From positions 19,939,101-20,003,100 of the forward strand of contig NC_134025.1 in NCBI RefSeq assembly GCF_964204645.1: a stretch of DNA of 64,000 nucleotides. Direction: 5' to 3'. The notes beneath the pieces are model-generated. The model was not told the DNA's origin. It ran no database searches and saw only the letters and a list, made by a program, of their open reading frames with translations. The first letter of the stretch is position 1; every line of letters begins with the position of its first letter. This document shows positions 1 to 64,000 of this stretch, piece by piece. Source of the DNA: Tubulanus polymorphus (taxonomy: Eukaryota; Animalia; Nemertea). The position numbers were made by a program, and so were the translations under genes.

Positions 1-134
1 TACACAAGGATTCAAATTGTACAGGTTCAAGATATGCTGTCAACAATTGATTGGATGATATGCCTACAGAATTACTTAAAATTTTCTATTTCATTTCCAT
101 TTTAGAACTAGACGTTTCATTAGCTGCTTAAACA

Positions 135-3100
135 ATGCCAGTGTCAACAGCTGAGTCATCATTTTTGGAAATCCGACAGCGATACTGTGAAGCCACTCAG
201 AATGGAAAGTTATCTTACACACATTATGCTAAAGGTTTGATCATTGGTGATGTAGGTGTCGGAAAATCTTGCGTGAAAAATACACTTATTGGTAAACCGA
301 ATGTTGAAAATGAAGAAACGCATACATTTGGAGTAAAGCAGGATACAATTGAGACGTATTCCTCATCAAAAGTCTTTCACAAAGTTGAAGAATCTGAGCG
401 TGAATTTTCTAAAGCTGCCGTATTTTTAGCTTTGTACAGTAAAGACTTCATTTTGGCAAAAGTCAATTCGGTAACGTCGGAACATTTGAAGAAAGGTTGT
501 CAACTTATGGTATCATTCTTGTGTTTGTTAATGTGTGTTTGTATACATTGTGGAAGTACACTTAATTTCAGTTTTCTTTATGTATTCAGTATCATTGGAG
601 CGTTGTCCATGAATTATATTTTAGATGTACCCTACAATTTGTACAGGTATGGTCAACATCTCTCTATTGTTTGCGTTGTTATGAAAGTCATTTGTGCAGA
701 AGATTCAGTTTGGAGTCACAGTAATATTGCTACCAATTACAGTAGCGCAAAACTAGGTCTCTTAATTGTAGTAGTTGGAATTGTCATCAGTAGTTTGGTT
801 ATCGGTATTAGTCACAAGTTCTCCTTCACATCAGGGATATGTTGCTATTTTATGGCAACAGGAGAATCAGGAATCTCAGTCAGCATATTCAATGATTATA
901 ATACTATTGCTAAACTTATTATATGTATCGTGATACATTTTTTGATAGATTATTACGCGACATATTTTAGGCAATATTTCAAAAGCATTGAGGCCAGACA
1001 TGGCATCATACCGTGTTTATTATTTGCCATTTTCTACAAGTCAATGCCGGTGTTCGTAACGTGTGCCAGCTTCTCCATATTATTTTCATTAGGGATGAAA
1101 TTGAGTGAATATTTGTGTGATAGACAAAAATATATTGTTAAACGAGATATTGGACATACTATCCAATATGTAATTGGTGTTGAAATTGGGATTATTCTCA
1201 GTCAGTATCTTGATTGGCAACTGCATTTTTCGGTATTTCACACATTGCTTTCCTTGGCAATTTACATTTTTGTTGAATTATTTTTTTGCTATCAAAATCA
1301 ATTTGATGCCTACCCTGCAGATGTAGTAGAGCACCTACAAGAATGTGGCTACCAGTCATGGCCTGTTAAGGTGTGCTTGTTGGATTTTGCTGGTAGCGAG
1401 TTATTTCGGGATGCCAATCATTTGTTCATGGGAGAAAGTGCAATATATATGATTGTTTTATCTCTCCATGAAGCTATACTACAGCCGGAATACCAACTAA
1501 ATAGGGTAATTTACTGGTTGAATGTTGTTTTTGCCCACACTCATTACAGAAATGCTAAAGTCATTCTCATCGGTACGAACAAAAGTAGATGTATGAATGA
1601 TGAAATCAAAGGATTTGGTCTATATCTGAAGGATAATTTGAAAAAGAACTTCAAAGATTGTTTAGCTTTAAATAAAAACAGAAATTTTGTTCCATTGTTC
1701 GCGATTGATAATATGGAATCAATGGATACCGTTGGTTCTGACTTAGATGAACTTCATAATGCCATATGGAAGTATGCTAACGATAGAGAGTTTACACACC
1801 AAAATGTTCCTGTTCAGTGGGTCAAATTTAATGATTTGATCATTCACAAACGTAATTTGCGCAGAACTGGTGAAAGTGAGCATTTAGATTGCTGTATTAC
1901 CGATGTGAATGTGCTTTATCAAGAGGTTAAAGAATTATGTATTGTAAATGATGAGCCAGAATTTTATAAACTGTTAGAATTTTACATTAGTTGTGGTGAA
2001 ATATTTTATCGTATGTGTGATCCTCGGCTGTATAAATATGTAATCTTAGATCCACAGATTATCATGGATTGCACGGCCTGTCTTGCCGGTCAATACCTAA
2101 ACTCTATTCCGACGCATCTTCAATTGCACTGGGATCGTTTGGAACAAAAGGGCATCGCTTCACGTGAAATGTTGATGCATTTACTAAAAGGCATTCCCGG
2201 ACTGAGGGAGTACTATATCGCAATACTGCAGGGTTTAGATTTACTTGTACCAATCGAGAGTCAGATCGGTTTGTTGTTTAGCGAGTCCGACACCTATATC
2301 GTACCATTCAGACTACCTTTGCGTCTGACATCGTCGCGCTATAATGATGACGTCGAACAATTTTATTTCGATTTCGGACCATTCAATCCGCAAATGATCT
2401 TTCTGAATCTCATTGCCAAGTGCTTTCAGATGTCGAAGTTTGTTGCTGAACAAAAAGAACTGCGAGTATCTGACCATGACTGGACGAACAATTTGTACAA
2501 GGATTGTGTCGAGTTCTATTATGGTGACTTGTTTCATTATAAAATCGAAAATTTACAAAACTCCATCGATCGAAATATCTTTCTTGTCAGCGTTTGGAAA
2601 ATCGACCACTCTGCATCGATATTTTCATTGTATGGACTTCTCAATGGAATTATTCTGTCATTGTGCAAAAGGGATTTCCCATTCGTGTCGTATAGTGTTG
2701 GGGTGCTGTGCGATTGTGGTGACTATCACAAAGTTGAGCATCGCAATGATTATGGTCCGGTGAAATACATGCCAATTTCATTTCGTACTACCATCGAATA
2801 TAAGTGCAAGGGTGAAACCAAGATATATACCGAAAAAGATGCTCCACACGAGGTAGGTCAACTGATAGTTTAGTAAAGAAACGTGATTATAACATCAGTT
2901 GCAACAACAGGAATTATCTGGGTTTTTTACTCTACAATCTATTAATTCTACCATCCGGATATCCTGCTGGCTTCATAGTGTGTGGTATATTTATTTGGAT
3001 AATTATGAGATGAGTATTCAAATTAGATGTTTCGAATAGCCAGCTGTAGCCTGAGCCTTTGCCTGTACAAATAGAATGAATGCTATGGTTTTCAGATGAA

Positions 3101-4352
3101 AGGTTTTTTCGTCTTGCAACTAAGTATATAGAAAGCAAAATATCAGACCAAAGAAACCGATCAGCTAACCTGATTGGGTTAGTTATAGATATAGGCAGGT
3201 GTTCACATACTACTCCCAGGATTTTAGATAAAAAATTGTATTTCAAGATATTTCTGAAGTATTTGTTCTTGCCAGCAGCGGTGTTACTTTAAAACGCGAT
3301 TGCACATATAAATTGTTAACCACAGCACCACGGTTATTCCACCAGATGGTGTGGGGAGCACTCAGTCTTATGTTATCAAAATTAGTTTATTTTCAATGAA
3401 CTTTGAACTGAATTTTTAGGGAAGAATTTTCAAATGCGTAGATCCTCACAGGACCCACCAAATATACAATAAATTAATTCTTCTACTTCTATAACGCTAA
3501 TCCTTGAATATCGGTAAAGTTTTCATTTATTTATTGATCTATGTAAGAAAAAGTTCATTCAGTTCTCACTGAAATATAGAAGAAATCGAACGCGAAAGAC
3601 CGAGGTACTACTAACAAACTTGGTGTAAGTGGAATCCTCGGTTCCCACAGGATGTCATAGGCTCCCCATAATATTGAAGCAGAATGTGTTATGTCACATA
3701 TAACCTACAAATTGCTTCATTTCATGAAAAGCAAATACTATAGGCCGACTGTAGTGCCCCTGTGTTTGGGCTCTTGTTTGTTCTATCTCATGATCTATTG
3801 ATTCAATTAAATTGTGTTGAATTGAATTCATTAATTCAAATTATTGCAATTATTTAATTCCAGGAACTTATCAGAGACCAGGAAATCTCTACACATGGCA
3901 TCCATAGTACAGCATTCATCTCTTGTAGCTCAGAGGACCGCGCTTGGGCTCAGTGTGAACTATTGCCTGCTTTGCAGAACATCCTGATACCTCGCAAAGA
4001 AATCCAGTTCAGTACAACACACAGTCAGATAATGATCAGCTTTACGCCAAACGAAAGATCGCGTCTAAGTCAAGAAGCAAAAAATCAACAATTTATTGTC
4101 TCAAGTACCTGTATTCTAGTCATTATTAGTCAAAACTACTTGCAAAATTGCATTAATGAATTGCATTTCGCCATCAAGCATTGTATCCAACACAAGAAAC
4201 GATTGATACCAATTCTATTGGACCAGTGTGAATGCCCGCATGAGTTGAGAATTGTCAAACCGCTTCAGTATCCTTCGGATGAAGGTCAGAATGTTTTTAC
4301 CGAATTTTATTTGCCTCTGATAAAATTGTTCAAAGATATGTCTAAGTGTTAG
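135..4352 (+). CDS. Roco-family GTPase with a multi-pass TM insertion inside Roc, a COR region and a C-terminal TIR domain; join(135..2852,3864..4352), ~1068 aa
   Basis: In-frame TAA at 129-131 precedes ATG 135. P-loop GDVGVGKS (246-269), G2-like THTFGV, G3 LDFAGS (DFAG 1383-1394), G4-like IGTNKS. COR-like motifs VPVQWVKF, YVILDPQIIMD, YIVPFRLP. Phase-0 donor GAG|GTAGGT at 2853 and acceptor TTCCAG|GAA at 3864 join in frame to AFISCSSEDRAWAQCELLPALQ...IISQNYLQNCINELHFA...RLIPILLDQCECP, which is TIR-like. Confidence 0.85.
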
Positions 4353-5068
4353 GATATACAAGGATATATTGCTGCTAATTTTGTCTCCAGAATCATGTTG
4401 TAAGCTTTCATCAGAACTACTTGAATCTGGTGTTATCAAAATCAGCCAAATCTTTACAGTGCTGTAGAATATGTTTCGACTCGAAACGTTTTAGAGAAGA
4501 GTGTCGAAGTTTAAAACGCGAGAATTATTGTTCATTGTCCTGATTAGTGCCTACATTAAGGTAAAGATGGCGAGTTAGTGCTAATCTGACTATGGATTCA
4601 GAACAGTTGAAGCTTACTTTGCTTTTGATGTTCATCACACATATATGTCTCAAAACCCCTCATGATGTGAGGACTGATAAATTTGTTGCATTTATTGGAA
4701 TGGCAGCACTATAAAATGAGCCTCTTCTATTGGTTTTTTATAGTGGTAGCTGCATGACGTCGAGATATCTTTAAGATCAGATTCCTATCGTATTCATTTT
4801 TTATACCCTCTACTATCCATCTTGCACGATTGTCCTGATATTTGGGTCATGGCTGATGTTTGACTATGCTGATGTCATTGTTGATTGTTTTCCATCATAA
4901 TCACCACTTCGTAACATATTTTTTAAGTTTTCAAGTTATACATGTATTTTGAAGACACTCGCATCAATTGCCTATTCATATGTTTATGCCATAATATGAA
5001 TGATGTGACATTAATTGCAAAGTTTTTTATTCATGCCTTTATTGTTTTCTATGAATTTAAAGGAAAAA

Positions 5069-5792
5069 TGTAGTGGAAGACAGTACAGGGTTCTGTTTTA
5101 CTGGGCAGGGACAGTCGCTCAAAGGTTTAAGTTAACTGTCAGATGAATACCTGGTAATGATGAAGTTCTAATTATCGATGACACATGCCGATATAGCTAC
5201 GATCCTAATACATCCACTTTTCGGGATCTATTAAGATCTTTATCGCTTTTTATTGCTACTAAAACAACAGAATTGCTTTATGATGACAGCTATCGGAGAT
5301 AAAGCTAGCCAGCAGCCACAGCAAGTCATATTAAATTGCGTGGGTTTTGACAATGGCCAAGTCAGCCAATCACTGACCGATGTCCAACAGATAAATTTTT
5401 ATTTGCGGTTTATACAAGCTGGTATAGATGTCTTCCATGATTACAATGCTGTTCAACAACAACAACAACAACAACAACAGCTAAAAACTCAACTTTAACT
5501 GACAATGCCTGAATTAGGACCAATATATATACTTCTGCTGAAAGAATATTCCAGAAATTGCCATCATATTCTAGATTGTATCTGGAAAGTTCCCTAAGAT
5601 TGTAAATAATTCCTAAACATTTCAGATAATTCTTCCCATTTCTGGTATTGTCCTAGATGCTTCTTCAATTCTAAAAACTGTAAACAACTAACAATATATC
5701 ACACTATTCTTGACCTAGTGCTACTCTGAGATAGTAACAATCACAAATCAATAATTCTCCAAACCTACACTACACTAAACATGAATATTACA
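5069..5792 (-). mobile_element. Probable solo LTR
   Basis: Termini TGTAGT...ATTACA form an imperfect inverted repeat. Read on the minus strand it has TTCTAGA/TCCAGAA-type short repeats, then a TATATAT box (~5524-5531), then AATAAA (~5248-5253). It contains the (CAA)n tract at ~5454-5478. No target-site duplication found. Confidence 0.4.
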
Positions 5793-6220
5793 GATAGAGG
5801 AATTTTCCTTCTGTCCATTGAGATTGAATAGCCAGTATATTAAATCTCAATATTTGTTTATATAGTGTATATTAGAAATAACCCGAATGATTTCCTGTAC
5901 ATTATCTGGTTTAGAAGGGCAGTTCGAAATAGTAAACGTTAAACGCTTAAGCTCAGTGTATAAACCATTCACGGATACCGCCCTGGAAACAATGGAGTTA
6001 GTTGAAAGAATGTTCTAAAACTTTTTGTGATTAAATCTGTCTTTCATCATTCAAGTTGTTTACTCGTTCTTATGAATGACCGTGAATAGAAATGTTTTTT
6101 TTATCATTAGAATTATATAATTATTATTAAAAATGATGAAATACTTGCTAGTTACTGATTTTATATTTTGCGTTGTGACTGAGTCCAATGGCGGAAAGTG
6201 TCATGTGGTCAATGGTATAT

Positions 6221-6806
6221 GGAGAAATTGTCCTGAAAAAAATGTCCCGGTCTATCATTACTAACTTGTTAATGTTGTTGATTTAACATCATTTAACACA
6301 ACAAACTTGGTATGTGTGCTTCATTTTAATTACAATTTCAACATGTGATAACAAATAATGGCTCTACTTCGATTTATTTATCTGTATAAAAAATATTCTT
6401 AAATTTGACGTAAAATTTAAGTAACTGTGCATTTACTACATAACTTTTCATAATTTTTCCATTAATGATATGTAATTTAGCAACTGCGCATTAATTTCAA
6501 TTGTAAAATCTTCTTAGATTTGATGTATCATGTAATGAGTTCAAAACGCTAGTCCTATAATTCTCATGGTACTCGATGAATTCTTTTTTTTAATGGTTAG
6601 TGTGCAATTAACACCATTACCAAGTTTGTTTGTGTTATTTTGATGTAAAATTTACTAAATAACTAATGATAGACTGGGTTTTTTTTTCTACCTTATATGA
6701 GACATTTTTTCCGGAGGAATTTTTTCCCTGGCATATTTTTTACGGGGACATTTTCCGGGACATTTTTTCCAAGGATGTTATTTCCCGGGACATTTTTACC
6801 TACATT
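6221..6806. mobile_element. Degenerate MITE-like element with subterminal GGACATTTTT repeats
   Basis: CCCGGTCTATCATTA...CACAACAAACTTGGTA (~6245-6312) is the inverted counterpart of TACCAAGTTTG...TAATGATAGACTGGG (~6618-6678); several GGGACATTTTTTCC repeats at 6698-6800. Confidence 0.4.
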
Positions 6807-6848
6807 CGTAGTCAATATATAAGTCTCCGGTCTACGGTATTCTTTTGG

Positions 6849-6931: not shown

Positions 6932-7027
6932 TGAAGATGACTACAAGAAGTAAGTCGAAACGTCGAATAAACTATTGGTTCTAGAAAAATATGTTCGGAC
7001 TTTGGTCTTTCATTATCATTGTGGGAT

Positions 7028-7254
7028 TTTCGTTATTTTATCGTCACAACAGGGATATAGTGTTTGATCAATGCTGACTCATTATACATTTGAAGACAAT
7101 AGATTTGAAGACAATAGCTTATAAATACATGTTGTTGAATATTTCGTTATTTTATCGTCACAACAGGGATATAGTGTTTGATCAATGCTGACTCATTATA
7201 CATTTGAAGACAATAGATTTGAAGACAATAGCTTATAAATACATGTTGTTGAAT
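7028..7254. repeat. Two-copy 114-bp tandem duplication
   Basis: TTTCGTTATTTTATCGTCACAAC...GTTGTTGAATA starts at 7028 and again at 7142. Confidence 0.9.
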
Positions 7255-7822
7255 AATTGAACATAGAGATCGCTTCTTGGATTATTAATTGACGACTTGC
7301 TAGAACGCGTGCTCTGGTAACCAACGAAGCGGTATGTGCCGTATTGGCTTACACTATACACATTAATCTTCAAGAAGAAGACTGTAACGAATAACGTAAC
7401 TCAGAAAATATAAATCGTTCCTTGGAAATGCTACATGTATATTAAATTCGTTTTTAAAGGATAAAGAATTAAAGCAACATGGTGGGTAATGATACTTATA
7501 TATTATAAACTTGTTACACGCGCGTGTGTGTGTTTCTAAATAACGTTAGTTGTTATGAAAAAACTTTCCCACCGTATTTATTGTAGCATATGTACGTTGT
7601 ATTGCCGTATTATGTCTATGTCTAACCGGTAAACAAACTGGTTCCGTTCGTATTCATACTTCAAATAATTATATGCAATACATATGCACTTATATTGACA
7701 ATTTAAGTCAAATACATAGGCCCAGAAAGCGTCTTTAAAGACAACCACACGAGGTTGCTCTGCAACGTTAAATGCGCTCTGGAGATATAGATATATTGTT
7801 GACTCGGAACAAAATCACAGCA

Positions 7823-9872
7823 ATGGCAGCAATTGAAAATCTCCAGGCGCAGGTATAGTTTGCATATTTCCGTTAAGATTAGACTTATATGAATGTTATA
7901 CTATGGTCTATTTCCATTTAAAAACTGTTGTGTATATTTTCACGCGGGACTGATTAAACCATATTAGAAATCAGTAAATCCATAGCCTATAGGCCCTTTA
8001 TAACTATAGGACATATTATGATGATGTATAAAAAGGGTTAATTAGGGCCATGAATAGAAGTATTTGGCAGAAATGAATACCCTATTCTATTTCTATAGGT
8101 CCTACAAAACGTAACGATCATCTACCAATGATAACCCTCATATTATCGGGTTGTCGAGATTTTTTCATGGGCCGCTTAGGCTATCTGAAATAGTGAAATA
8201 GTTGAATTGATGCTCGTAACAATTCAAACCGATGAGTACCATGGATACTTGTAGATAGCGCCTCATTGAAACGACTGTCTGACAATACCGTAATATATCT
8301 AATATATAATTTTCAGGTGGATCAATTTTCAGAAGAAGAAATTGCAGGTAAGGCAACATCAAAGAAAACCCTGTTTCTCGGGCCTGACAGACCCGGATTT
8401 CGTCATTTCAAATAACTATAATGAAATTGCCTACCGACCTTATTTCGGATGAAATAAATTTTTTCAAAATTAAATTTGTGGCTGACCGACTACAAAGCTC
8501 TCCATCGTGATCTCGGCACAGATCGACACCATAAAATTATTTTTGACATCGGATTTAACAATTTGATTCTGGAAATGGTAGGCCTACAGCTGTGCTCAGA
8601 CATTGATGGCAACCTTGGAATGTACAATTCCAGGAATACCGTATAAGATAATTGTTAAAGGCCTATTCAAGATTTTGATGTTTTTCTTTTCATGAACAGT
8701 TTCCAAGTGTGTTCAAAATAATAGTTTTTTTATAGTTTATTGTACAAAAAAACCTGAACTTCCTTTTATTATTGTGGTCTTCTAATTGCTAATCATATTT
8801 TTTAACTGGAAATTTGGTCTTGCATAAAGACCGACCGACCGACCGACCGACCGACCGACCGACCGACCGACCGACCGACCGACCGACCGACCGACCGACC
8901 GACCGACCGACCGACCGACCGACCGACCGACCGACCGACCGACCGACCGACCGACCGACCGACCGACCGACCGACCGACCGACCGACCGACCGACCGACC
9001 GACCGACCGACCGACCGACCGACCGACCGACCGACCGAAATTGTAGTGTATGTGTAGGTTATACATAGGTATATCTGTGCTTTTCAGAATTTAAAGAGGC
9101 CTTTGCGATTTTTGACAAAGATAGCTCCGGATTCATTACGACAAAAGAGCTCGGTACAGTTATGAGAACGTTGGGCCAAAATCCAACAGAAGGTCAACTC
9201 GCATCAATGATTAGAGACATTGATGTGGATGGTAAGACAAAAGCTGGAAAGAAGGAATTTATGAAAATTTTCTCTTAAGAATAATACCTGAAAGTGGGTT
9301 ACAGGGAAACGTCCCTTCTCTCCAAAATTTCACCTGGGGAAGTTGAGGGATTGAAATTAGCAATTCGCATTACTTAAGTAGGAATTCGAAAATTATCAAA
9401 AATTATGAAGCGAGGCAACTTTATATTTTAAGCCCACTGAAAGCAATTTTCCTTAGTTGTTGTCTGCATGAATTCTTCCGTATACCAACATCGCATCCTC
9501 TCGTTTAATCGTGTAGGGAATGGAACTCTGGATTTCCAAGAATTTCTTGGTTTTATGGCGAGAAAAATGAACGACGGCACAGAAACCATAGATGACATCA
9601 TAGAATCGTTCCGCGCGTTTGATAAGGAAGGTAACGGGTTCGTAAGCGCTGAAGCATTGGAAAATTTCCTCATGAACATGGGCGAAAAACTGGACGAAGA
9701 CGAAATGGGGTGTATGCTGAAAGAAGCGGGAGTAGATCAAGATGGACAAATTAATTACGAAGGTAGGCATCGTTATATTCCAAATTGAATTCAGTATCGT
9801 GTATAGCACGGTAAGTAATTCTTTTCGTGGATTCTTTTATTTTCAGAGTTCGTTAGACTTATGATGTCATGA
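7823..9872 (+). CDS. Calmodulin-like EF-hand protein, 158 aa; join(7823..7852,8317..8347,9088..9231,9517..9762,9847..9872)
   Basis: Spliced translation [86 protein letters not shown]...[12 protein letters not shown]...[19 protein letters not shown]. All introns are GT-AG with compatible phases, and several sit at the usual calmodulin positions. Exon 1 is the least certain. Confidence 0.9.
8350..8781. mobile_element. Non-autonomous DNA-transposon-like repeat; a second copy starts at ~25850
   Basis: AAGGCAACATCAAAGAAAACCCTGTTTCTCGG...TTTCGTCATTTCAAAT...AATTGCCTACCGA matches AAGGCCACACCGGAAGAAAACCTTGTTTCTCGG...TTTCGTCATTTCAAAT...AATTGCCTACCGA at 25850-25950. TGTGGTCTT at ~8773-8781 is a candidate inverted right end. 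Confidence 0.5.
8829..9037. repeat. (GACC)n tetranucleotide microsatellite in intron 2 of the calmodulin-like gene
   Basis: About 52 perfect GACC units; explains the spurious DRPT/GRSV ORFs. Confidence 0.97.
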
Positions 9873-10526
9873 TTAATTTCCACGTACAATTATAGTTCAT
9901 TATGTTTATGTATATGTTAGAATTAGAATAAATTTTAGCTTTTTTGTAAAGAAAATTGTCCTCGCGAGTATACTTCGAAATATTTCCTTTCGTCAGTTTC
10001 ACACGAGTTCTTAATACGTTTCCGTAGCATTCTATGTAATCTACGTGTATTTATTTTTCTTTCTGCCAACCACAATGGAAGTTCATTTACCAAGGCTAAG
10101 GTCTAGACACGATGTTATTCGAAAACCACAAATATTGGTGCACAAATGTCGAGAAATATCTAGAGTATCCTGTGCAGCGTCGTATCGAGTCGATTCACTA
10201 TTCAAATCCGCTCGTAAATATCCCAAATTACTTCGTAACGAACGACAAGTCTGTGAAATAAAACACGATAAAACTGTAAGAACCGAATTGCGAGCGTCGG
10301 TCCTTGGGGGTTGTGGTTCCGAGCGATGTTTTTATCTGATGAAATGGCGCATTGATCGATACTGCAAATTGCATCCAGAAAAATACTGTGAATAGAATAA
10401 GAAAATGTTCTAGTAGTTTATTGGCGTGTCTGATTTATCTTAACATGGAATAGCACTGTTCCAGCTAATCGCATTACAATTTATGAGAAACTTTATTCTT
10501 ATCAAAACACGCTTAACTATCTGATT

Positions 10527-11606
10527 TTATTCATCTGGTTGTTCGCCCCTTTCGTCTAAATTAAAGTGGCTCTTTTGGATCATTTGAATCCACCCGATGA
10601 CCTTGTCGTCATCATCTTGTTTATCTTTGAGCGTTTCGGGAAGAATACGTTCATGTTTTCGGTTGTATTTTTGGTTCGTTGAAGTCTTTAGTTTATTAAC
10701 ACCGTTATTATCCGATATCACCGGCAATCGATCAGCTGAACCGGTCGTATCCTGGCGATCCATCAAAAAAGTAACAACCTTTTCCAACTTTGGTGCGTCG
10801 ACGTCGTCGCTAATTTCACGGAAAAACTGTTCAATGCCGTTTCCCTGGTCCATTTGCGGGTCATTATTTTCTGGGTTTTCGTCGCTTAGATTTTGCTGCT
10901 CATCAACTCTTGTTGCAAGTGCTGGCAGAGGTTTGTACGTTTTGATGCGATGCCGTTTCAATGTTCTACGCAAGGCCAGTCGACGAAGTTGGGGCAAGTA
11001 AGATTTATCTATATAAGATTCACCTACATCTGTCGAATAGACGCCATGTTTATGATGGCGAGCATTCTTGCTACAGTGGAAGAACGCATCTTTCTTAGCG
11101 GCAGCAATTTCTTTCTGGCAGCCGAATTGCAGTGACGTCACTTGTTTGCAGTCTTTTCGAGGTCGGCGAATAGAGAGAATTGTTTCGGGATCAGCTAAAT
11201 TTGATTTTGGTCGTGTTACTTTAATCGGGGATCTTTCCATTCCAATCTGCTGTAGATCTTTGATATCTAGACTTATACTGGTTCGGTCAGCTTTAAACAT
11301 GGGGATACACTTACCCATCGTAAAGATTGGAGCGTCTTTTGTTCCCTGTTTAAAAGTTGACAACGCTTGAAACACAGTCTTTACACGTTTGATTGCCTGT
11401 TTACGCTTTTCTCCGCCAGTATGTTGTTTTTCATCGTTCAATCTATACGAGATTTGACGTTCCTCTAGGATCTCGTTGGTAAGTCGAGCGTGAACGTGGC
11501 ACCGCAATGTTTCTATTTCGCGTAAATTCGATTTTAGCTGATTGTTCAGAATTTCGTTGGCCGACTTAGTAAAACTTGAAAACGATCCTAGTTTACGTCG
11601 TCCCAT
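10527..11606 (-). CDS. Uncharacterised 359-aa intronless protein with N-terminal coiled-coil motif; distant paralogue of 13685..14998
   Basis: Long ORF in AT-rich DNA with Lys/Arg-rich, disordered composition. Residues 17-56 align without gaps to residues 17-56 of the 437-aa ORF (14/40 identical). Confidence 0.75.
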   Translation of the reverse strand: MGRRKLGSFSSFTKSANEILNNQLKSNLREIETLRCHVHARLTNEILEERQISYRLNDEKQHTGGEKRKQAIKRVKTVFQALSTFKQGTKDAPIFTMGKCIPMFKADRTSISLDIKDLQQIGMERSPIKVTRPKSNLADPETILSIRRPRKDCKQVTSLQFGCQKEIAAAKKDAFFHCSKNARHHKHGVYSTDVGESYIDKSYLPQLRRLALRRTLKRHRIKTYKPLPALATRVDEQQNLSDENPENNDPQMDQGNGIEQFFREISDDVDAPKLEKVVTFLMDRQDTTGSADRLPVISDNNGVNKLKTSTNQKYNRKHERILPETLKDKQDDDDKVIGWIQMIQKSHFNLDERGEQPDE

Positions 11607-12375: not shown

Positions 12376-13684
12376 CTGTTCACTCGCAGGTGAAATATTT
12401 AATCTGTAGAATCGTCCAATAAAAGGTCCACTAATTACCCTGGGTACAGCGGCATTTATCGCAATATGGATAGTGGTGTGTATAGAATGATATGGGTTCG
12501 ATATTCACAGGGATTGTTTTACATTCCGACAAGTGCGCATAGGGCACTTTCTTCGAAGGATTATTTTTGCAGTAATTGTCCCCAAAAGATCATCTCAGTT
12601 GATGAGACTCGGTCGGTCATTTTCGTTCCATATTTAGCGAAGCGATGGAGACGATTCGGCAATTTATCATTGGAATTACTGCACTAATCCCGCACGTTAC
12701 GAAGCACGAATCATACCTATATTTAATGAAGCATATCCTACATAGTTGATTGCCTATCATCGTAAGCTATTGGCTAAGATCAGTGCCGAGGACATTGGCT
12801 CCTAGGCGTATTACTAAATGACACATCGTCTAGCCTGATTATAGAGAGCCATCGATGACGATACGAGGATACATTGAAATGTCATTTTCTGATAGCGTCA
12901 TCAACACTCTATCTGCGATAAATCGAAAAGCGCTGTATACGTTTTCCGTTTGGTGACGCCATCGCTTTCATTCAGTCTCTGAAATGCCCGTGCATTCGTA
13001 ATTCAGTAGCGAAAGTAACGCATATCTTCGACATGCAAAGCACTCAAAAAGCTACCGGTCGCGAACAACTAACATCCATTAAACTACACAGTGATACGGC
13101 ATCGATACGGTTTACTCTGTTAAGCCATTGCAACAAGACTCGCCTCTCCGGTCGTTTTATGGCAATTTTCATTTCCCATGATTTATTAGTCTCAAGTATG
13201 CCAACTCTTTCACGATTTCTCATTATGTTTTGTTATAATATTTCTCGTCAGCCCGTTGGTTTTCTTCAAATAGCACCAAAGGCTTTTCGGCCCTCGAAGC
13301 TATTGTTCTCATGGGAATTGGATACATTGTTGGCAAGGACGACATGCTTTACGTTGGAACTCATGGGAACCTCTTCTTTGTCTTTGAGGGTATAAAATTA
13401 AAATCGATCCATTACAACAAAATCTGAACATTATGTTCGGTAATAAATATTCTGCGAGGTGTAGCTTGTTAATGAATTCAGCAAATAATTGCCGCTTATT
13501 GCATAAAAAGCCAGCGCAGTTAGCGACATTTTGCATTATTAAACGTAATTCAGCGAAGATAACGGCAATGTAACACTTATGTACCGGGTAATACTGGATT
13601 TATATGATCGATGACAACCTGTGAAAAAACTCCGCTTTTTGTCCGTGGATTTATATAAAGATATTTACATGAACATACGTCAGG

Positions 13685-14998
13685 ATGATGGGTGAGGATA
13701 TATTTGGTGCTTTATTAAAAGCTCGGGACAAAAATGAACTGCTGAAGTATCGTTTGACAGAGGAGATAAGATTTCTCGATAGACAAAAGAAACAATCAAA
13801 ACATATGTTGACAAATGATATATTCGACGAAAGGAAAGAAGCTTATCGTCTGCAAAGAGAGGTGACCGATATTGAATTACGCGACCAGGAAAAGAAACTA
13901 GCGGCCGAGGCGAAAAAACGAAAGGGCTGGGAAGCATTACGCCGGAGAAAAACATTTTTAGTCGCATTAGCTGGACTTGCAGAGAAAAAAGAATCGAAAG
14001 CTGGAATAAAGGGTACCCAAATGGCGTTACTGAGTCCAGAAAAGGAATATGTTCAGAGAAATCGAACAAGGTCGGCCAATGAGTGGAAGGATAAACTACT
14101 GCCCGAATTGGAACTGAATCGTAGTAAGTCTTTAGTTGTACTGTCGAGCCATTGGGTTGGAGACCCGAGAGCTATTGACTCTGTAAGGCGCGAGCGAAAA
14201 ACCCCAGAAGAAATGGGTACGTACACTCGTTTTTTACAAGGGTTTCGTCACGCGGCCAGGCGATCGATTCGTACGGCTTTCTGCAGTCGACAAAGATGCC
14301 GCGGTGCATACGAGGGTGACCCCGGCTTCACTGACGTCAGTCACATGACCTTGCGTAAAGTCATGAACAAAGCAAAACATATCAAACTAAATGAGGAGAT
14401 CCAACCGGAAGCTCTACAAAATGTCGATATACCCACCCCAGCTGAAGGTAAAACAGCTGGTGGTGTAATAAAATCGTTGCTTACAGACACTCCTTTCGAA
14501 GAGAAACAAGGGCTGCCAAAATCCCGAGAGAATACCACATTCTCAAACGATTCTGGCATCGAAGCAGACGCTTCGAGTGTCGGTGGACTTTCTCGATCAC
14601 ACACGTTACCACAAATATTAGAAGAATCAGAAACCTCCGGAAAAGATAACGAACTTGATAATAAATCAAGTTTACCCTCTCGACCTTTATCTACATCATC
14701 AGCAATGGGTGCAGCTGGGCTCTACTCGCAACTAAGTAAAAGCAAACCAAAAGCGAATCATACGAACAAAACTGGTTTCGGTGTCAATTTAAAGCCTATC
14801 AACTACGATAATATTACAAGTCCGATTGCTGAGTTACGCCGGATGAGTACGAACTTTTTGAACCGGGAAGACGTTATAACTGTCGATGTAAACAAATCCG
14901 TCAGAATTCATAAAACCGTTAATTTCAACGCTGACGCAGTTGAACATAAGAAACATTTGGCTCGTCGAAGGATCATTTTACCCGATATGATATTCTAA
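13685..14998 (+). CDS. Uncharacterised 437-aa intronless protein with N-terminal coiled coil and Ser-rich disordered tail; distant paralogue of 10527..11606
   Basis: 1.3-kb ORF; heptad-like N-terminus; shares the NE(L/I)L..L....R...LTN(D/E)I..ER...YRL motif with the divergently oriented 359-aa ORF. Confidence 0.8.
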   Translation: MMGEDIFGALLKARDKNELLKYRLTEEIRFLDRQKKQSKHMLTNDIFDERKEAYRLQREVTDIELRDQEKKLAAEAKKRKGWEALRRRKTFLVALAGLAEKKESKAGIKGTQMALLSPEKEYVQRNRTRSANEWKDKLLPELELNRSKSLVVLSSHWVGDPRAIDSVRRERKTPEEMGTYTRFLQGFRHAARRSIRTAFCSRQRCRGAYEGDPGFTDVSHMTLRKVMNKAKHIKLNEEIQPEALQNVDIPTPAEGKTAGGVIKSLLTDTPFEEKQGLPKSRENTTFSNDSGIEADASSVGGLSRSHTLPQILEESETSGKDNELDNKSSLPSRPLSTSSAMGAAGLYSQLSKSKPKANHTNKTGFGVNLKPINYDNITSPIAELRRMSTNFLNREDVITVDVNKSVRIHKTVNFNADAVEHKKHLARRRIILPDMIF

Positions 14999-19437: not shown

Positions 19438-22400
19438 ATGAACTGTGGAACGGAAAGTGGTTTATCGATGTTCTTTTTCATATTAGTAAGTAACGTAGAT
19501 TTTCATTATATTCGTTGAATTATGTACCTTCTATTGAACGCCATGAATGCAATTCATAAAAATTTCCATTACCTATTCACCTCGGATGTATTTTGAAAAC
19601 AGTTTCTTTTTGTAGAATTATCAAATTTACAATTCAAATTCACTCAACCCCTCCCCAAACGAAAGCGATGCTGCCAGGTTAATCATAGTTGATTTATTAC
19701 AGTGGAACCTTGTTTATCGAATCTTGTGGGCTTAAGTGAAATTGTCGTATTAAACGGGTTTCGTATTATCCATAGCTTGATTTATATGAATATCTGGGCC
19801 ATGCGGGAAATCATCGTACTCGACGGGTTTCGTCATAAACGAAGTCGTATCAACGAGGTTCAACGGTATCAATTAAGTATAAATCTATCTATCCCTTTTC
19901 GTGGAATTTAGAAATCAGAAAAATACTAACTAGCATCGTTATCTTTATTTCAGGTCGCTATTTTCTCATCTCCGTCATCTGTGATCGCAGGTAGGAAACT
20001 TTTCAATATTCGCACACTTAAAATTATCGTTTAGCGAAACATGAAAACAACAACAGTATGAGCATTTCGTGTTCTTGTTGTGCTGTTTTATCGGGTCAGT
20101 AATGCAATTCTGGTCTATTACTTCCGAATCCGAAGAAAACAGAAAATTGTAATTATCCATTTGCCTGATTGATCGTTGCTTTTATAAGGCGTAGATTTTT
20201 AAGAGTTCAGTAAACACGGTTAGTCTTGGCTTTGGTGCGTTGAAATGTCGGAATTTCCTCGAGTATACGGAAAGCAAACAACAGAAAAGTATCAACGTCG
20301 TTCTGCATTCTAAGATATCATATTTGGATTTACTTTTTGCTATTACAGTTCTACAAAGGGTTGTTGCTCTAGTATGTGGGATTTCCGTGTTGGGCTGTGA
20401 TAAAAAGCTTAAAAATTTCCGCATTCATTGAATAATTTCTAAAACATCAGAAGAAACATTTATTCTTGCATAAATAATAACGATAGCGCAATGATTTTTT
20501 AAACATTTTTTCATCCAAGCAAAAATACGGCACGGGTCTGAGTGGGCACGTCATTCGATATATCTATATATGTACATCAGTTTTTTTTGCTACAAATCAT
20601 TTAATCAACCGAGCTATGCTGCTTGGCCTTCTTGGAATCACTTGACACATTCTCTCACATATCAATGTGAATGATCTATCAAAAACGGGTATTGCTGTAA
20701 AAAGCTCTTGCGAACACTTTTCAGAGTGCAATTCGAACTCCTCTAGAGCGTACTACGACCGTTTACGATGATATATTATTTAGTAGAACGTCGTCATCGG
20801 CGGTAGTGCGATTTCAAAGTGGGAATCAAATCTAATTTGAAACTCAATTTGACTCCGTTTCATATATACTTAGCAGGTTATTGCTTCTGCTCGAACCGTG
20901 GCAAAATAATTCCATATGCTTTTTTCACGGTATCAAGGTCGCGGATATTTTCACAACTTTTCTGTGTTAACGAAAACACCGCATTTTTATTCAAGGAATT
21001 CTAATTGTGTTGATTTTGTTTTAAGTATGCTGATGCGGTAATCTTCGTGGCGATTAAGTTTATACTAGCAATTTATACTAGCAATTTAACTCCGGCATGA
21101 ATAGTTCGTTAAGTCACCGACCGAAGAAGAATTCGTTTCTATCCGACTTTTAAATGCTTACGATAACTACAGAAATATTTACGTTATCCCGTCTGTTAAT
21201 TAATGCATCATAACCACGCTCGTAAAAACGACATTGTCTAAAAATATAGGATAATTGAAATATTTCCGTATCTAATACACCTGCCTATTCGTTCTGAATT
21301 CATGTGTGAATAATTATTCATCAGATACGAGTGAAATCTAAGTGCGATGTACAATAAATCTTCGCCCTGGCCATCTATATGATATGTAGGCCTACAACTG
21401 ATTTTATCGATACCAAATTGTTGAAATAATACATAGATCCTGAAATCATACTTCGATTGATGACTGAATTGCAATGTTTCATGGTAACAGTGAGTTGGAA
21501 TTTTATCGGCAACGCTTAATTGTACTTACGTAGCCTTATTCTGGAGTTAGTGCTAGCATTCTTCAAATTTTAGTTTCATTCTGAAAATTAGCAGTGGTTG
21601 AAAATGTTAGAATGAAAAGCGTATCCTACCGGTGGCAAAGGAAATTGAATACTCGGATTTGTTAACTTGAACAAAGACATTAAACAGATCGAAGGACAGA
21701 GAATTGACCAGATAATTGCAATTCTTGAAAAAAAGTGTCAACGATGACAAAAACTGCACGTTTTACTCGTCCATTCGAATCCGCAATATGTATGTATATA
21801 CTCGGTAGATTGGATAAGAAATATATTCGAGAGTTTATCATTCACCCGAATCGAATTGATGTGGTATAGGCTATAGGCGAATTTTTGAATAGAAGAAAAT
21901 TGATAGTATTTTTGCTTTGTAAAAATCTGGGTCCAATGGATCAAGTGAAAATTATTTAGATAAAGACGTATACGTATTGTACGAGTTACCATAAGCAATG
22001 TCTATATGGTGACTATGGTAACTCGTACTATATGATTATAAAATATAATTTGTATAAGTAAGTGGTTTACCGAATAGCCTATGTTTATGTTTTTGCAGGC
22101 GATAGTGACCACGGATGTAAAGTCGGTTTGGCTGACATTGTATTCATGTTAGACGATTCATCGAGCATCTGGCCAAACAATTTCACGCTGCAGAAGAATT
22201 TCGTAAACCAAATGATAAATTCATTTGATATCGCTCCCGACGCTACACATGTTGCAGTCGTCACGTTCAGTACGCGCGCACGTCTTCAATTCAGACTCAA
22301 TGAAATGATGGAGAAAGACAAACTGAGGGAGGCCGTTTTCAGAATCCGACAACGAGGTGGCGACACTAACACCGGAGACGCGCTTAATTTAGCGAGGACC

Positions 22401-24980
22401 TACGCCTTCAGCCGTTCTCAGGGTGGACGACCAGGGAAAGTGCCTCAAATTGGAATCGTGATCACCGACGGCAAATCGCAAGTAATGCGCCAAACCACCA
22501 GAGAAGCACGGTTAGCGAAAGAGCAGGGAATTATTCTGTTCGCAGTTGGTATCGGAGAACACGTCAGTCAAAAAGAGTTACGATCAATCGCTTCAGGTGA
22601 CGATTTTATATTTGAAAATAATGACTACGCCACTCTGTCAAAAATAGAGACACAACTTCAACAAAAAGCGTGCGAAAGTAAGTATTGAAAAAGAACTGCG
22701 AATGATCTTGCAAAATCAAGTCTCTTATCGATATTCATATTGCTTTCAGTTCCAATACCAACAGAGGTCAAAGTAGGAAAGAACTGCCGGAACAAGGAAC
22801 TTGACCTTATATTCGCTGTAGACGTAGCCAAACCGATCTATAAGATCGACTACTTCAAGACACTTGCCTTTGTACAAAGTGTCATGTATTCTATGGATCT
22901 TGGCGACGACAAGGGCAAAGTTAGTGTAATAGCGTTCGGGAATCACGTAGAACCTGCTTATCAACTCGGTGAACACAATTCTTATTCCAAAAACTCCAAA
23001 TCATTGTTCAACATTAAGCAGATGGATGGACCGTCAGATTTTGCCAGTGTCCTACAATATGCCAGATCTAGAGGTTTCAATGAGCGATATGGCGCGCGCA
23101 AAAGTGCGGCCCAGGTTCTTGTACTGGTAACCGATGGCAAGTCAGCAGACTTTGCAGAAACTGTCCGACAAGCGGAAAGAACAAAAACGGCCCGCATAAG
23201 AATATTTGTGGTGGGAATCGGCCCCGATGTAAACACTGGAGAACTGGAAGCTATAGCATCTATGCCGGCTAGATACCATGTGTATAAGGTTGATAACGTT
23301 GATCAGCTGGCAAAAGTCAAAACTTCAATATCCAGGAAAATATGTAGTGTATCAGGTCCAGTACAACTCGAAGGTAGGTCGACCGAGTATTCTAGTCGAA
23401 CAATCTTTAGACTGTCACTTAAGATGTGCTGCATTGAAATTTCTATGAATATATATTGCAGCTTGTGGTCGAAGAAAGGGAGCTGACATAGCTTTTGTAA
23501 TGAACACCGAGAATGCTATTGCTAAAGACGTTGTCAAAACGAGAGCTTTCATGAAGAACATCACTACCAGTTTCAACATGGGCAAAAACAAAATCAAAGT
23601 GGCCGCGCTACCAACAAAATGTAACTCAGTGCCTGGTTTCAGACTCAACGAAGGCGGCGAAGACAAGAAAGTTGCGCTAGAAAAGATCGGAGCCGATACT
23701 AACAAGGACGCTCTTACTGCATTGTTGACCGACGTTCGCACAGACGCATTCGAAGAGAAAAACGGTGCTCGAAAGGGTGTGAAGAAAATTGCCATCGTCG
23801 TTACAGACAATAAACCAGAAAATCCACGTAAAACTCTATTAGAAGCGATGAAAACGAAGATGTCAGATGTGGAAATATTCGTGATAGGGGTCGGCAAGGA
23901 GGTCGATTCGAAGCTGCTGAAAAATATAGCATCCACGCCGACTGAACGCCATGTAGCATTTGTACCCAATTACTCTACATTACACGAAACTAAAGAAATG
24001 TTAGTCGACAACGTATGCGAAGGTAAGATCGATATGTTTTCTTGAAAAAAATGACTCCATTTTAGGTATCTTAGGAATCTTTACATCCATTCTTAATGGG
24101 AATTCGGTACGCTTAAAATCACTTTGTGGGATATAAGGGGAATATAAATATGTAACTCGAACTCGAACCAATTATTAACTCCCAACTTGAAACAAACTAG
24201 ATGCTAGTTGTATAGACTGATCCCAGCAACAAAGTTGTGAGTTACCATTTACATTTCGACTCGTCGAGATCAAATTCACAATGTTCTTACTTTTTGGGTG
24301 CATTTCTCGAAAGGCTATGAGGTCATTTTAGTTGGAAATGGTGGATATGATAATTATCGGAAGATTTTTGGCATTTTTTTTTGCTTTGACGTCGAAGAAA
24401 GATATCCCGAAGAAAAATATGGTATTTTGAACACATATCAGAAAGTGACAACCTGAAGAAGGTTGTCAATAAATCAATATGAAAAAGTGCAATTTCAGCA
24501 TTACGTAAACCATGATTTGAAATGAATTTGAAGATTTGTCGGAGTACTCGAAAACCTCACTGAGTTTTTTTGCAAAATAAGTCATTCACTTGCGCAGTCG
24601 TCGTACCTGTAAACAGCAATGAAATACGGCGAGATAGAATGTATGTCGATTCATACATAAACCCAATACATGTTGCAAATTTAAGAATGACATCAACTGT
24701 GCCTCGCCTTGTGTAATTAGCAGTTCCAAAAGTATAGTGAGGATTATCATACAATTTTGAGAACAATCATCCGTTTTTTCGTTGGTTTCTGGTTAGACCT
24801 ACGAGCAATCATCCCAAAATCTTGAGATGATTGCTCGTAGGCTAGACATAGTATATAGCCGACACCGTGGTCTTCACGTACGTTACATCAAGATCGCAAA
24901 GTCCGTCATGAAGCGAGGCTTCTTTGATTGATACTATGTGATTATTGATTTCTTTTACAGAACTGGAAAATGGGTCTTAA
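19438..24980 (+). CDS. Secreted three-VWA-domain protein (matrilin/collagen-VI-like VWA modules), ~622 aa; join(19438..19485,19954..19990,22099..22677,22750..23373,23462..24022,24961..24980)
   Basis: Signal peptide MNCGTESGLSMFFFILVAIFSSPSSVIA is built from two small exons. Three phase-1 exons each encode a C...DIVFxxD...IVITDG...FAVGIG...C VWA module. MIDAS DDSSS is intact only in VWA1. All junctions are GT-AG and in phase. Confidence 0.88.
19700..19866. mobile_element. Tc1/pogo-like MITE
   Basis: TA|CAGTGGAACCTTGTT ... CAACGAGGTTCAACGG|TA: imperfect TIRs flanked by TA. Confidence 0.55.
24798..24841. repeat. Short perfect hairpin, probably a miniature TIR element
   Basis: CCTACGAGCAATCATC / GATGATTGCTCGTAGG form a 16-bp inverted repeat with a 12-nt spacer. 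Confidence 0.6.
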
Positions 24981-30230: not shown

Positions 30231-30946
30231 GGCAGAACTATTTTTCTATCATTACAAGGTTCCAGGTAGTGGGAACGTCTCAAAAAATACAAACCTCGGA
30301 ACAAAGTTTAGATTGCCAATATTGCTAGAATTTAATTCCCAACTGATGACATACGTCGCCTGAAACCGAATAAGTTTCAGAACGCTAGGTTTTTGAATCG
30401 GAGTTTAACCTGTCATATTTGAATTTTAAGTGGAGATGATAATGATTGTAGCTCCCTAAAAACCGTCCTAAAATACTAAGATATTTTGATGGAAAGCTAG
30501 ATACGTATCTAACGTACGATGTGCCCACTACAGCGTTATGCGCGACTTTTGCCAGTTTTACAGTTTATCTTTAATTTCATTACTATGGCTTTTAAGCTAT
30601 TTAACGCTTGGCCAGACTGATATGCGTACGTTCCCTGCTCTGCAATTTCGTTCACCGTTTAACTAATAGCCGTCCGAAAATTGCATTCATATATATTTTA
30701 AACGATTCACCATACGCTGGCGATCTATTCTGTTATAATGTGAAAAATCGTTATTTCAAAAATTTGGCAAGCGAATGGGTAAACGAATGACGTCCTTTCA
30801 AAATCAGCAAATCAATGCACAAACGTTAAACATAATGCCGTAGTATCGAGTATCGAGTACATAAGTCTTTCCAGGTATCATTTGTTAAATTGCATCTATT
30901 AGCTCTGCTAACAAGACTATAGTATATTCCAGTTCGCACCATATCG

Positions 30947-31993
30947 ATGTTTAATCTACCGGTACGTGATTCATCAAATCGCCGTTACACATTTTCCTTA
31001 GCGAAAAAAAACACGAACACAACGATGAATTCATCCCAGTGCCCGATAGACGAGATACAAGTATTCAAACACTACGTGATAGTATATGGCGTCGGTGCAA
31101 TCTGCGTCTTGGGTATATGTTTGAACATCTTCGGGATTTTCGTTTTTCGAAAAATGACGGAGAGTGGACAAGCTATCTATCTCCTCACACTACTATCAAT
31201 AGCCGACACAGTTTATCTGCTAAACATTTTTCTCGATAGTCCGGTTCGACGTCTCATTTACCAAATAATCCACGGTGACAAATTATTTCGTAGGAAAGAC
31301 TACGGTGTATTTCCGATCTGGAACTGGTTCCGCATTGCTGCTTACAAGTCGACTGTTACAATTCGCAATTGGGTTGTCCTTCTGTCAGCAGTTGTTCGAT
31401 GTTTGCACATTTTGTTTCCGCTATGGTCCCGTCGAAACATTGATCGGAAATTTGTGAATTTATGTACGGCGATAATAGCGATCGTGTCGGCGGTAATATA
31501 TATACCTCGTTATTTCGGCGGTCGCGTTGTCCCGTTTAAGTGTCTGGGATCTTCAATGTCGAGTCCAACTTATCCAAAATTTGTGAAAGGAAAAGCAATG
31601 GATTTGAGCTCAACATGGATTTATTTGATAGTAACAGTAAATGCACCTATGATTATTCTTATGCTCGCAAACACGATTTTGCTGTGGTCCGTCAGTCGTT
31701 CGGTGAAAAATAGGAAATCGATGACGTCATCTAATACCGAAATAAATGTTAACACAAGAGCCACTCAACTTGTGATCATAGCTACTCTTATATATATAGT
31801 TTGCGAGTCACCAACAATCATTTCAAGAATATTTAATTATTTCATTAAATACGAATCCACAATTACGATGAGGAAAATGTTTGTCCTCTTAGACAACCTG
31901 ACTCCGATCGACTCAGCTATCAATTTTGTTATCTATATTATTGCCAGTAAAATATTCAGAAAAACCGCGTATAAAATACTGTTTGCCAAATAA
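30947..31993 (+). CDS. Intronless class-A GPCR, FMRFamide/peptide-receptor-like (chemoreceptor-type), copy A
   Basis: Seven hydrophobic segments; GICLN (TM1), LSIAD (TM2), VRCLHILFPL in place of DRY, IPRYF, CESP (TM6), DSAINFVIY (TM7), helix 8 FRK. The true start may be the ATG at 31025 (MNSSQC). Confidence 0.9.
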   Translation: MFNLPVRDSSNRRYTFSLAKKNTNTTMNSSQCPIDEIQVFKHYVIVYGVGAICVLGICLNIFGIFVFRKMTESGQAIYLLTLLSIADTVYLLNIFLDSPVRRLIYQIIHGDKLFRRKDYGVFPIWNWFRIAAYKSTVTIRNWVVLLSAVVRCLHILFPLWSRRNIDRKFVNLCTAIIAIVSAVIYIPRYFGGRVVPFKCLGSSMSSPTYPKFVKGKAMDLSSTWIYLIVTVNAPMIILMLANTILLWSVSRSVKNRKSMTSSNTEINVNTRATQLVIIATLIYIVCESPTIISRIFNYFIKYESTITMRKMFVLLDNLTPIDSAINFVIYIIASKIFRKTAYKILFAK

Positions 31994-38730: not shown

Positions 38731-39422
38731 TCATACAAGGTTCCAGGTAGTGGGACCGTCTCAAAAAAATTCAAACCTCGGAACAAAGTTTAGATTGCCA
38801 ATATTGCTTGAATTTAATTCCCAACTGATGACTTACGTTGCCTGAAACCGAATACGTCTCCGAACGCTACGTTGTTTGAATCGGACTTTAACCTGTCATA
38901 TTTGAATTTTAAGTGTAGATGATAATGATTGTAGCTCCCTAAAAAACATTCTAAAAGACTAAAATATTTTGATGGAAGACTAGATACGTATCTAATGCAC
39001 GATGTGCCTACTACAGCGTTATGCGCGACTTTTGCCAGTTTTACAGTTTGTCTTTAATTTCATTACTATGGCTTTTAAGCTATTTAACGCTTGGCTAGAC
39101 TGATATGCGTACGTTTCCTGCTCTGCAATTTCGTTCACCGTTTAACTAATAGCCGTCCGAAAATTGCATTCATATATATTTTAAACGATTCACCATACGC
39201 TGGCGATCTATTCTGTTATAATGTGAAAAATCGTTATTTCAAAAATTTGGCAAACGAATGGGTAAACGAATGACGTCCTTTCAAAATCAGCAAATCAATG
39301 CTCAAACGTTAAACATAATGCCCGAGTATCGAGTACATACGTCTTTCCAGGTATTATTTGTTAAATTGCATCTATTAGCTCTGCTAACAAGACTATAGTA
39401 TATTCCAGTTCGCACCATATCG

Positions 39423-63559: not shown

Positions 63560-64000
63560 GCGAATTACTACCATAAAAAGCAAGGCTGCCACAAAAACTT
63601 AATATTGGGTTATCTCAATTGATACATGATTGAAGAAATTTCCAAAATCTGCGGTGGAGTTATCAACAACTAAGGATGAATAATTTTTAGTAGAACTACC
63701 AAATACCATATAAGCGCTTTTCACAGCATTAAAAAGCAAGTCATATTCAATAGCGAAATCATCACAGGTTTCATACATTGCTTTAGCTGCGTGTTTACCA
63801 GGAGCAAGTAAGGTGACATCATCTATATAGCCACTGGCTCCAACATATTGGTTTCCGATGTAGCAGCCAATGCCAATCTTTTTACGGTCACAAAGCAAAA
63901 TGTCAATGTATATATTAAATAGTATAGGGGATAAGACTCCGCCTTGTTTTACAACATTGCTAGCATCGAATAAACTAGAATGACATCCGTTCCATGATAT
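63560..64000 (-). mobile_element. Non-LTR retrotransposon RT fragment (RTE-X/L2-like), cut by the window end
   Basis: KQGGVLSPILFNIYIDILL...GIGCYIGNQYVGASGYIDDVTLLAP...FNAVKS; the YADD motif is altered to YIDD. Confidence 0.85.

Follow-up and report, generated by a model that had tools for sequence, protein, structure and literature searches.

AP-GTPase-COR conflict systems consist of a Roc-COR core with swappable C-terminal effectors, including TIR and caspase domains, and are described with multiple paralogues (Kaur et al., eLife 2021, PMC8195603). Roc-COR-TIR proteins were reported for Aplysia (PMC9334734), Trichoplax (PMC4104024), the red alga Chondrus (TPR-ROCO-TIR; PMC11378527) and bacteria (PMC8195603). 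For Aplysia a GTPase-linked TIR cascade was proposed (PMC9334734). Roco proteins with C-terminal membrane segments are already published as well (PMC8195603, PMC4104024). The trigger of Roco nucleotide cycling is still debated for LRRK2 (PMC6337361).

A Roc-COR-TIR gene was investigated in a 64,000-nt stretch of Tubulanus polymorphus DNA (the window, to which all positions refer). The original prediction was a membrane-anchored protein of undescribed architecture, a candidate innate-immune or cell-death switch. The architecture is new in part only: the order Roc-COR-TIR is known from the organisms named above, but for the polytopic insert inside Roc no description was found in the open full-text literature, a coverage that leaves subscription Roco surveys (Marin 2008) outside. 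Insert-bearing Roc domains are not described in the consulted parts of PMC12909245, bioRxiv 10.1101/2022.05.18.492404 and PMC8662601, and the word 'transmembrane' is absent from those of PMC6337361 and PMC6320773. Supplementary tables beyond PMC8195603 may list insert-bearing Roco proteins.

Gene structure and expression

All features of the gene lie on the plus strand. Coding exon A (135 to 2852; contig 104-2853 of data set X1) codes for 906 aa with Roc and its insert, COR and a Cys/His segment. Coding exon B (3864 to 4352; 162 aa) is the entire TIR domain, with the Pfam match TIR_2 at 3915-4271. The phase-0 GT-AG intron of 1011 nt between them (2853 to 3863), as predicted originally, was confirmed by the frame join and by X1 contigs. 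Donor (GAG/GT at 2852/2853) and acceptor (CAG/ at 3863/3864) are both phase 0, and the joined exons give 1068 aa with the terminal stop as the sole one. The former split into two ORFs corresponds to these two exons, but the second ORF has 106 aa in an ATG-only list and not 129. Within the intron a short genome-wide repeat was found near 3360-3420.

An in-frame TAA (129-131) precedes the ATG at 135. Positions 104 to 134 comprise a splice acceptor (AG at 104-105) and the 5' UTR part of the first coding exon; X1 is also spliced here, with a 27-nt loose end at 104, and the upstream non-coding exon lies outside the window. A likely 3' UTR of about 2.5 kb (4353 to 6840) is covered by X1 contigs (3862-6842, depth about 105-110). 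The cover beyond about 6842 ends at an AT repeat, and the end of the 3' UTR is approximate.

The skipping of exactly 1011 nt with GT..AG ends was detected in one X1 contig reaching 27 nt on the short side (depth 105.7 compared with 18.2 for the unspliced intron). The intron of the neighbouring calmodulin-like gene is likewise skipped in X1, where 4 of 30 bins are uncovered and the intergenic bins are empty. X2, in contrast, covers the intron continuously, with neither the 2853-3863 junction nor that of the calmodulin-like gene. Therefore X1, for which the record gives no type, is read as RNA from its behaviour. The junction 2852^3864, originally proposed as a check, is hence found in the RNA-like X1 and absent from the DNA-like X2. 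X3 and X4 have patchy cover, and the 2853-3863 junction is absent there. X1, X2, X3 and X4 all come from one study and count as a single line of evidence; a Tubulanus RefSeq protein with the same parts in one chain is a second line for the gene model. A retrocopy as source of the junction was ruled out, the DNA-like X2 being without it and X1 splicing neighbouring introns too. The Roc-COR-TIR gene is real and expressed. It is single-copy within the window. The neighbouring genes are unrelated, housekeeping or sensory.

Roco domains

Judged by its motifs, with Roc G1-G3 and a COR after Roc, the protein belongs to the Roco proteins. The predicted Roc GTPase was recovered by Pfam (E 2.8e-08) in two stretches; Ras was matched by Pfam as well, but no KAP family. 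The N-terminal half (aa 30-75; 222 to 359) aligns to residues 16-58 of the LRRK2 Roc chain 6oje and carries G1 GDVGVGKS (aa 38-45), switch I Thr64 and strand beta2. The C-terminal half (aa 411-550; 1365 to 1784; Pfam Roc 411-482), with its G3 part aligned to residues 78-151, carries G3 DFAG (417-420), G4 TNKS (481-484) and the G5 region with N526. G1-G3 are intact, G43/K44 being kept in 67 of 72 relatives and T64 in 69 of 72. In G4 a Ser replaces the Asp of the motif, which is mostly TH[RK]D in the family. This Asp is present in 39 of the 72 relatives, variable across the family and missing in the three closest relatives too. Its loss may weaken nucleotide control in the T. polymorphus copy.

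For the predicted COR (aa about 555-860; 1797 to 2714) the match of the protein itself to COR-A (595-724, E 0.0025) stays under the cut-off, but relatives aligned over this region exceed it, with COR-A scores down to E 1e-12 and COR-B in some. The CxC..H..C segment (C859-x-C861..H865..C891; 2709 to 2807) is present as described before. It is partly conserved (C859 in 48, C861 in 20, H865 in 32 and C891 in 38 of 72 rows, many of which stop short of the segment) and is a possible metal site. The C-terminal TIR was verified on the last exon (TIR_2, E 4.6e-11; 43.7 bits compared with the cut-off of 28). As expected from the original prediction, the Pfam scan of the 1068-aa protein gave zero matches to LRR, ankyrin, kinase or Death domains.

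The insert in Roc

The insert of about 335 residues (aa 76-410; 360 to 1364) interrupts the GTPase domain after switch I and ahead of switch II; it sits in the interswitch hairpin formed by beta2 and beta3. In the alignment to LRRK2 Roc this hairpin holds about 345 residues, compared with about 20 in LRRK2. Charged residues make up 10% of the insert compared with 23% of the remainder. The AlphaFold2 monomer of aa 29-445, built from a 68-sequence alignment, reached a pLDDT of 82.6 and a pTM of 0.77, the GTPase halves rejoining around a helical bundle; with a single sequence of a Tubulanus relative only a pLDDT of 35.8 was obtained. The predicted membrane domain (aa about 120-390) has about ten crossings, with eight long and two short helices. 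The content of K/R per residue is 0.129 in the four inner loops compared with 0.058 in the five outer loops, a test that is not blind, the ten crossings being set by hand from model and hydropathy after viewing the profile. K/R are more frequent inside than outside in 47 of 68 sequences (9 compared with 2 in the T. polymorphus protein). Both Roc halves, COR and TIR are predicted to be cytosolic. Membrane insertion, as claimed before, is supported; the insert is a predicted domain of about ten passes inside the GTPase fold and not a simple anchor.

In the VIA structural comparison with Roc plus insert as query, all 50 listed matches were P-loop GTPase folds, mostly with about 80-90 residues across the model (1..417). 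For LRRK2 9ci3 (1332-1422) 90 residues were aligned with Z 7.6 and rmsd 2.7; one chain among the 50 matches listed reached Z 8. Since about 85 residues from both ends of the model align to GTPase domains, the two halves rejoin. A membrane fold was absent among these 50 matches, the listing being filled by GTPase folds. Foldseek with the same model gave nothing at E<=0.001 in PDB or the viral library. No usable match to the insert was detected in the ESM Atlas, where a hemichordate member matched unnamed Roc/Death/COR clusters.

The insert is the most variable region, with a pairwise identity of 0.145 compared with 0.25-0.42 elsewhere across 72 rows; for 52 close coral sequences 0.84 was calculated compared with 0.90-0.96. 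Membrane segments usually diverge faster than enzymes, and therefore this variability does not prove selection.

Occurrence and relationship of insert-bearing proteins

A profile search of 1.84 billion representatives yielded 62 matches at E<=1e-30, the best 150 matches being listed. G1 and G3 were scorable in 105 of 156 proteins. A search in other animals, as suggested originally, places the gene in a broad family: a hydrophobic insert was found in 66 of the 105 scorable relatives, with corals among the named ones. The other 39 have none, including two threshold misses with inserts of 313-338 aa and one protein with a 56-aa gap. Names were looked up for 20 of the 150 listed matches; five clusters carried none, and the named ones belong to Tubulanus, Lingula, Ptychodera, Glandiceps, Saccoglossus, Asterias, Patiria, Amphiura, two Branchiostoma species and Corticium. 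At E<=1e-15 a query from the coral clade gave 356 proteins; those listed (120) include named entries from Oculina, Orbicella and Pocillopora. We take the groups of the named members to be nemerteans, a brachiopod, hemichordates, echinoderms, amphioxus, a sponge and corals. The named insert-bearing relatives are all annotated as 'uncharacterized'; the Saccoglossus record is a partial model without insert, auto-labelled pats1. Some coral-clade proteins lie on contigs of equal length and may thus form arrays; Ptychodera members have adjacent accessions. An alignment-driven word search for relatives gave one new protein only.

The Tubulanus RefSeq relative is a single chain with Roc, insert, COR and TIR, showing 31% identity over 95% of exon 1 and 35% across the TIR. 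The nearest named relatives in the tree are two Tubulanus genes (support 98). In a leave-out test the T. polymorphus insert reached 17.9 bits on the inserts of non-nemertean bilaterians compared with -18 for the reversed sequence; the inserts of the two Tubulanus relatives scored 95 and 72 bits. By these profile scores it is homologous to the non-nemertean bilaterian inserts. The sponge insert reached 18.4 bits compared with -15.7 reversed. On the bilaterian profile all 122 coral inserts stayed below 10 bits, and the hhalign probability was 0.12. The coral inserts are thus without homology detectable at this level, and the evidence does not establish a single origin of the inserts. Two trees built without the insert supported the bilaterian clade with 99 and 96 and placed all insert-bearing proteins on one side, weakly (84 and 66), against a soluble outgroup made up only of proteins retrieved by the insert-family profile.

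NHR, LRR or ankyrin domains are frequent in soluble relatives. In 64 of 66 insert-bearing rows the P-loop lies at most 110 aa from the start, and therefore no room is left for such an N-terminal sensor. The family is apparently unnamed, and its distinctive part is the uncharacterized membrane domain. Domain scans miss it, since no Pfam family covers the insert and a separate exon often encodes the effector.

Among 47 proteins scanned, Death tails were detected in 16, TIR_2 in 5, caspase in 1 and none in 25. The TIR, originally regarded as the effector of the protein, is present as a tail, but it is one of several swappable tails of which Death is commoner. With a local TIR profile made from seven tails, five further TIRs were found; TIR tails occur on at least three separate branches. 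Many of the tail-less records are probably single-exon calls lacking the effector exon, as in the ORF split of the T. polymorphus gene. Four named coral gene models stop after the Cys/His segment without an effector. These models would fit a sensor-effector reading only via a separate partner.

Discussion

Observation covers the splice and domain order, an insert located after switch I and before switch II, and a family with swappable tails. As explanation we favour, with a probability of about 0.5, a sensor of innate immunity or danger that is embedded in the membrane, its insert controlling the Roc switch and the TIR tail being clustered by the latter. The membrane domain would stand in for the sensor that other Roco proteins carry at the N-terminus as LRR, ankyrin or NHR domains. 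Since the insert hangs on the strands bearing both switches, a ligand or a membrane change could shift the nucleotide state via the insert. This shift would alter COR-mediated dimerization, as in other Roco proteins, and the clustered TIR would recruit TIR adaptors as a scaffold and not act as NAD+ cutter. An immune or death role of the protein is an inference. The sensor reading is supported by the pattern of a variable sensor, an AP-GTPase-COR core and swappable TIR or caspase, which matches the conflict systems (PMC8195603).

The membrane domain could itself be the effector, a GTP-gated pore or channel with secondary tails, which we regard as unlikely. GxxxG motifs are enriched in 35 inserts (207 observed, 57 shuffled; GxxxGxxxG 54 compared with 4), two short helices lie within the bundle and coral members occur without fused tail; moreover, plasmolysis is caused by the bacterial NTPase Tmn, whose membrane helices follow Walker A (PMC13552941). 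However, GxxxG is common in helix packing generally, and the T. polymorphus insert, with a single GxxxG, has lost most of the family glycines while the TIR is intact. Conserved polar residues of the insert are few (R171, an R321-equivalent and E381) and located near helix ends, and no internal repeat was found in it (hhalign probability <8% in eight comparisons). An insert serving as mere anchor or scaffold, as in Kidins220, with a role in trafficking or developmental signalling and not in defence, is likewise improbable. In favour of it, LRRK2 works at membranes in trafficking (PMC6337361), and the genes next to the locus are unrelated ones with housekeeping or sensory functions. On the other hand, ten crossings exceed the need of an anchor, and both the Death, TIR and caspase tails and the expansions in single lineages are what immune and death systems typically show.

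The sensor and switch could also be as favoured here, with a TIR that cleaves NAD+ in the manner of SARM1 and so acts directly, by killing or signalling. The top Pfam match is TIR_2, the sister tails are death effectors and the T. polymorphus TIR carries the alphaC Glu (codon 4158-4160). At this position Glu was found in 7 of 12 family TIRs and Asp in one more, but Lys or Arg in the remaining four. The nearest solved TIRs are TLR10, TLR6 and TLR1, all weak matches (E 0.11-0.31), and in TLR10 and TLR6 the aligned residue is Glu as well. The TIRs of TLR10 and TLR6 are not known to be enzymatic. No SARM1 chain was present among the five PDB matches to the TIR at E<=10. Going by these alignments, the alphaC Glu does not imply NADase activity, and the enzymatic reading appears quite unlikely. 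Since Glu is common to non-enzymatic TLR TIRs, a Glu mutant alone is no test of the TIR mechanism. Finally, the T. polymorphus copy could be a drifting or pseudo-GTPase paralogue, acting as decoy or constitutive scaffold. Its degenerate G4, lost glycines and long end branch (1.09 compared with a median of 0.62) fit this, and the missing G4 Asp and family glycines also speak against a sensor. We consider it very unlikely: the frame of 1068 aa is open, the transcript is spliced, G1-G3 are intact, the three closest relatives lack the G4 Asp as well and G4-G5 vary in Roc domains generally (PMC6337361).

Under the favoured reading of a membrane-embedded sensor, a domain on both switch strands offers a direct, testable route from membrane input to the control of the Roc GTPase. 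More tentatively, the family could represent an undescribed, animal-wide class of polytopic immune receptors parallel to TLRs and NLRs, with a new-fold ten-pass sensor in the Roco interswitch and outputs via TIR, Death or caspase domains. Such a class would have been present from sponges and corals onwards, with expansions in marine invertebrates. The Roco family would gain a membrane-embedded branch, and animal immune receptors a candidate third design. The candidates occur in corals, sea stars and amphioxus, in which pathogen sensing is poorly known.

Comparison with known systems

The conflict systems share the variable C-terminal effector with the insert family, which has Death, TIR, caspase or none. 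They are described from prokaryotes, with an N-terminal LRR sensor and with the listed TM segments after COR (PMC8195603), whereas the T. polymorphus protein has no LRR, a P-loop at aa 38 and a polytopic domain inside Roc. The soluble Roco-TIR and Roco-Death-TIR proteins of invertebrates differ in their LRR, NHR, MBT, EF-hand or TPR domains (PMC9334734, PMC4104024, PMC11378527). Comparable soluble relatives have hydrophilic interswitch inserts of about 75-225 aa and stand on a separate side of the tree. In Ectocarpus, the LRR-ROCO proteins are expanded, variable and proposed as immune receptors (Zambounis 2012 as summarized in PMC4104024). Their sensor is a shuffled LRR array, and a transmembrane-like C-terminal region, present in some, follows COR (PMC4104024).

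The Roc-COR tandem is common to LRRK2, DAPK1, MFHAS1 and Chlorobium Roco, and the Roc motifs align to LRRK2, but kinase and repeats are missing in the T. polymorphus protein. Rab proteins bring LRRK2 to membranes (PMC6337361), whereas the T. polymorphus protein is predicted to be embedded. Membrane segments inside a P-loop NTPase, a link to defence and variable C-termini are reported for KAP NTPases (Kidins220, PifA) and Tmn (PMC13552941). These represent another NTPase class, which limits the parallel to an analogy; in the KAP example that was tested, the domain contains one helix and not about ten (PMC13552941). Toll-like receptors resemble the T. polymorphus protein as membrane proteins with a cytosolic C-terminal TIR, which is weakly TLR-like here. 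In contrast to them, it has no LRR ectodomain, is predicted to be multi-pass instead of single-pass and carries a GTPase between membrane and TIR.

Genomic neighbourhood

Immediately 3' of the Roco-TIR gene lies a multi-exon gene for a calmodulin-like EF-hand protein (window 7675-9880, + strand), for which splicing was seen in the RNA-like run X1. A tandem copy of about 114 nt at 7027-7142 is contained in the window sequence and is skipped by the DNA-like run X2; this copy is either an assembly artefact or a polymorphism.

Furthermore, a segment of about 8.5 kb is duplicated in tandem between approximately 29800 and 44000, with copies 96-97% identical. It carries a near-identical pair of Srw-type GPCR frames of 356 codons each, the first at 30923-31993 and the second at 39399-40469. 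Three successive VWA-domain exons (22062-24045, +) are a portion of an adhesion or matrix protein. Exons of an SLC6/SNF transporter were located at 52253-56094 (+). The window closes with part of a reverse-transcriptase sequence (63599-64000, -). For two long frames, at 10527-11606 (-, 359 codons) and 13673-14998 (+, 441 codons), no match in Pfam was detected.

Variation among the relatives

The three isoforms of the Tubulanus relative LOC141905184 (P0003, P0004 and P0005) differ solely at the TIR end. The last TIR helix is missing from two of them, a loss which could tune TIR assembly.

The coral sequences of the P0194-P0262 group form a strongly polymorphic subfamily without effector. More than 70% identity to one member was found for 52 sequences, every one of which forms its own 90% cluster; their variability is highest in the first and the late membrane helices.

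In the family member P0016 of Branchiostoma floridae the tail is a full caspase domain. This protein is predicted to be a membrane-bound, GTPase-gated caspase.
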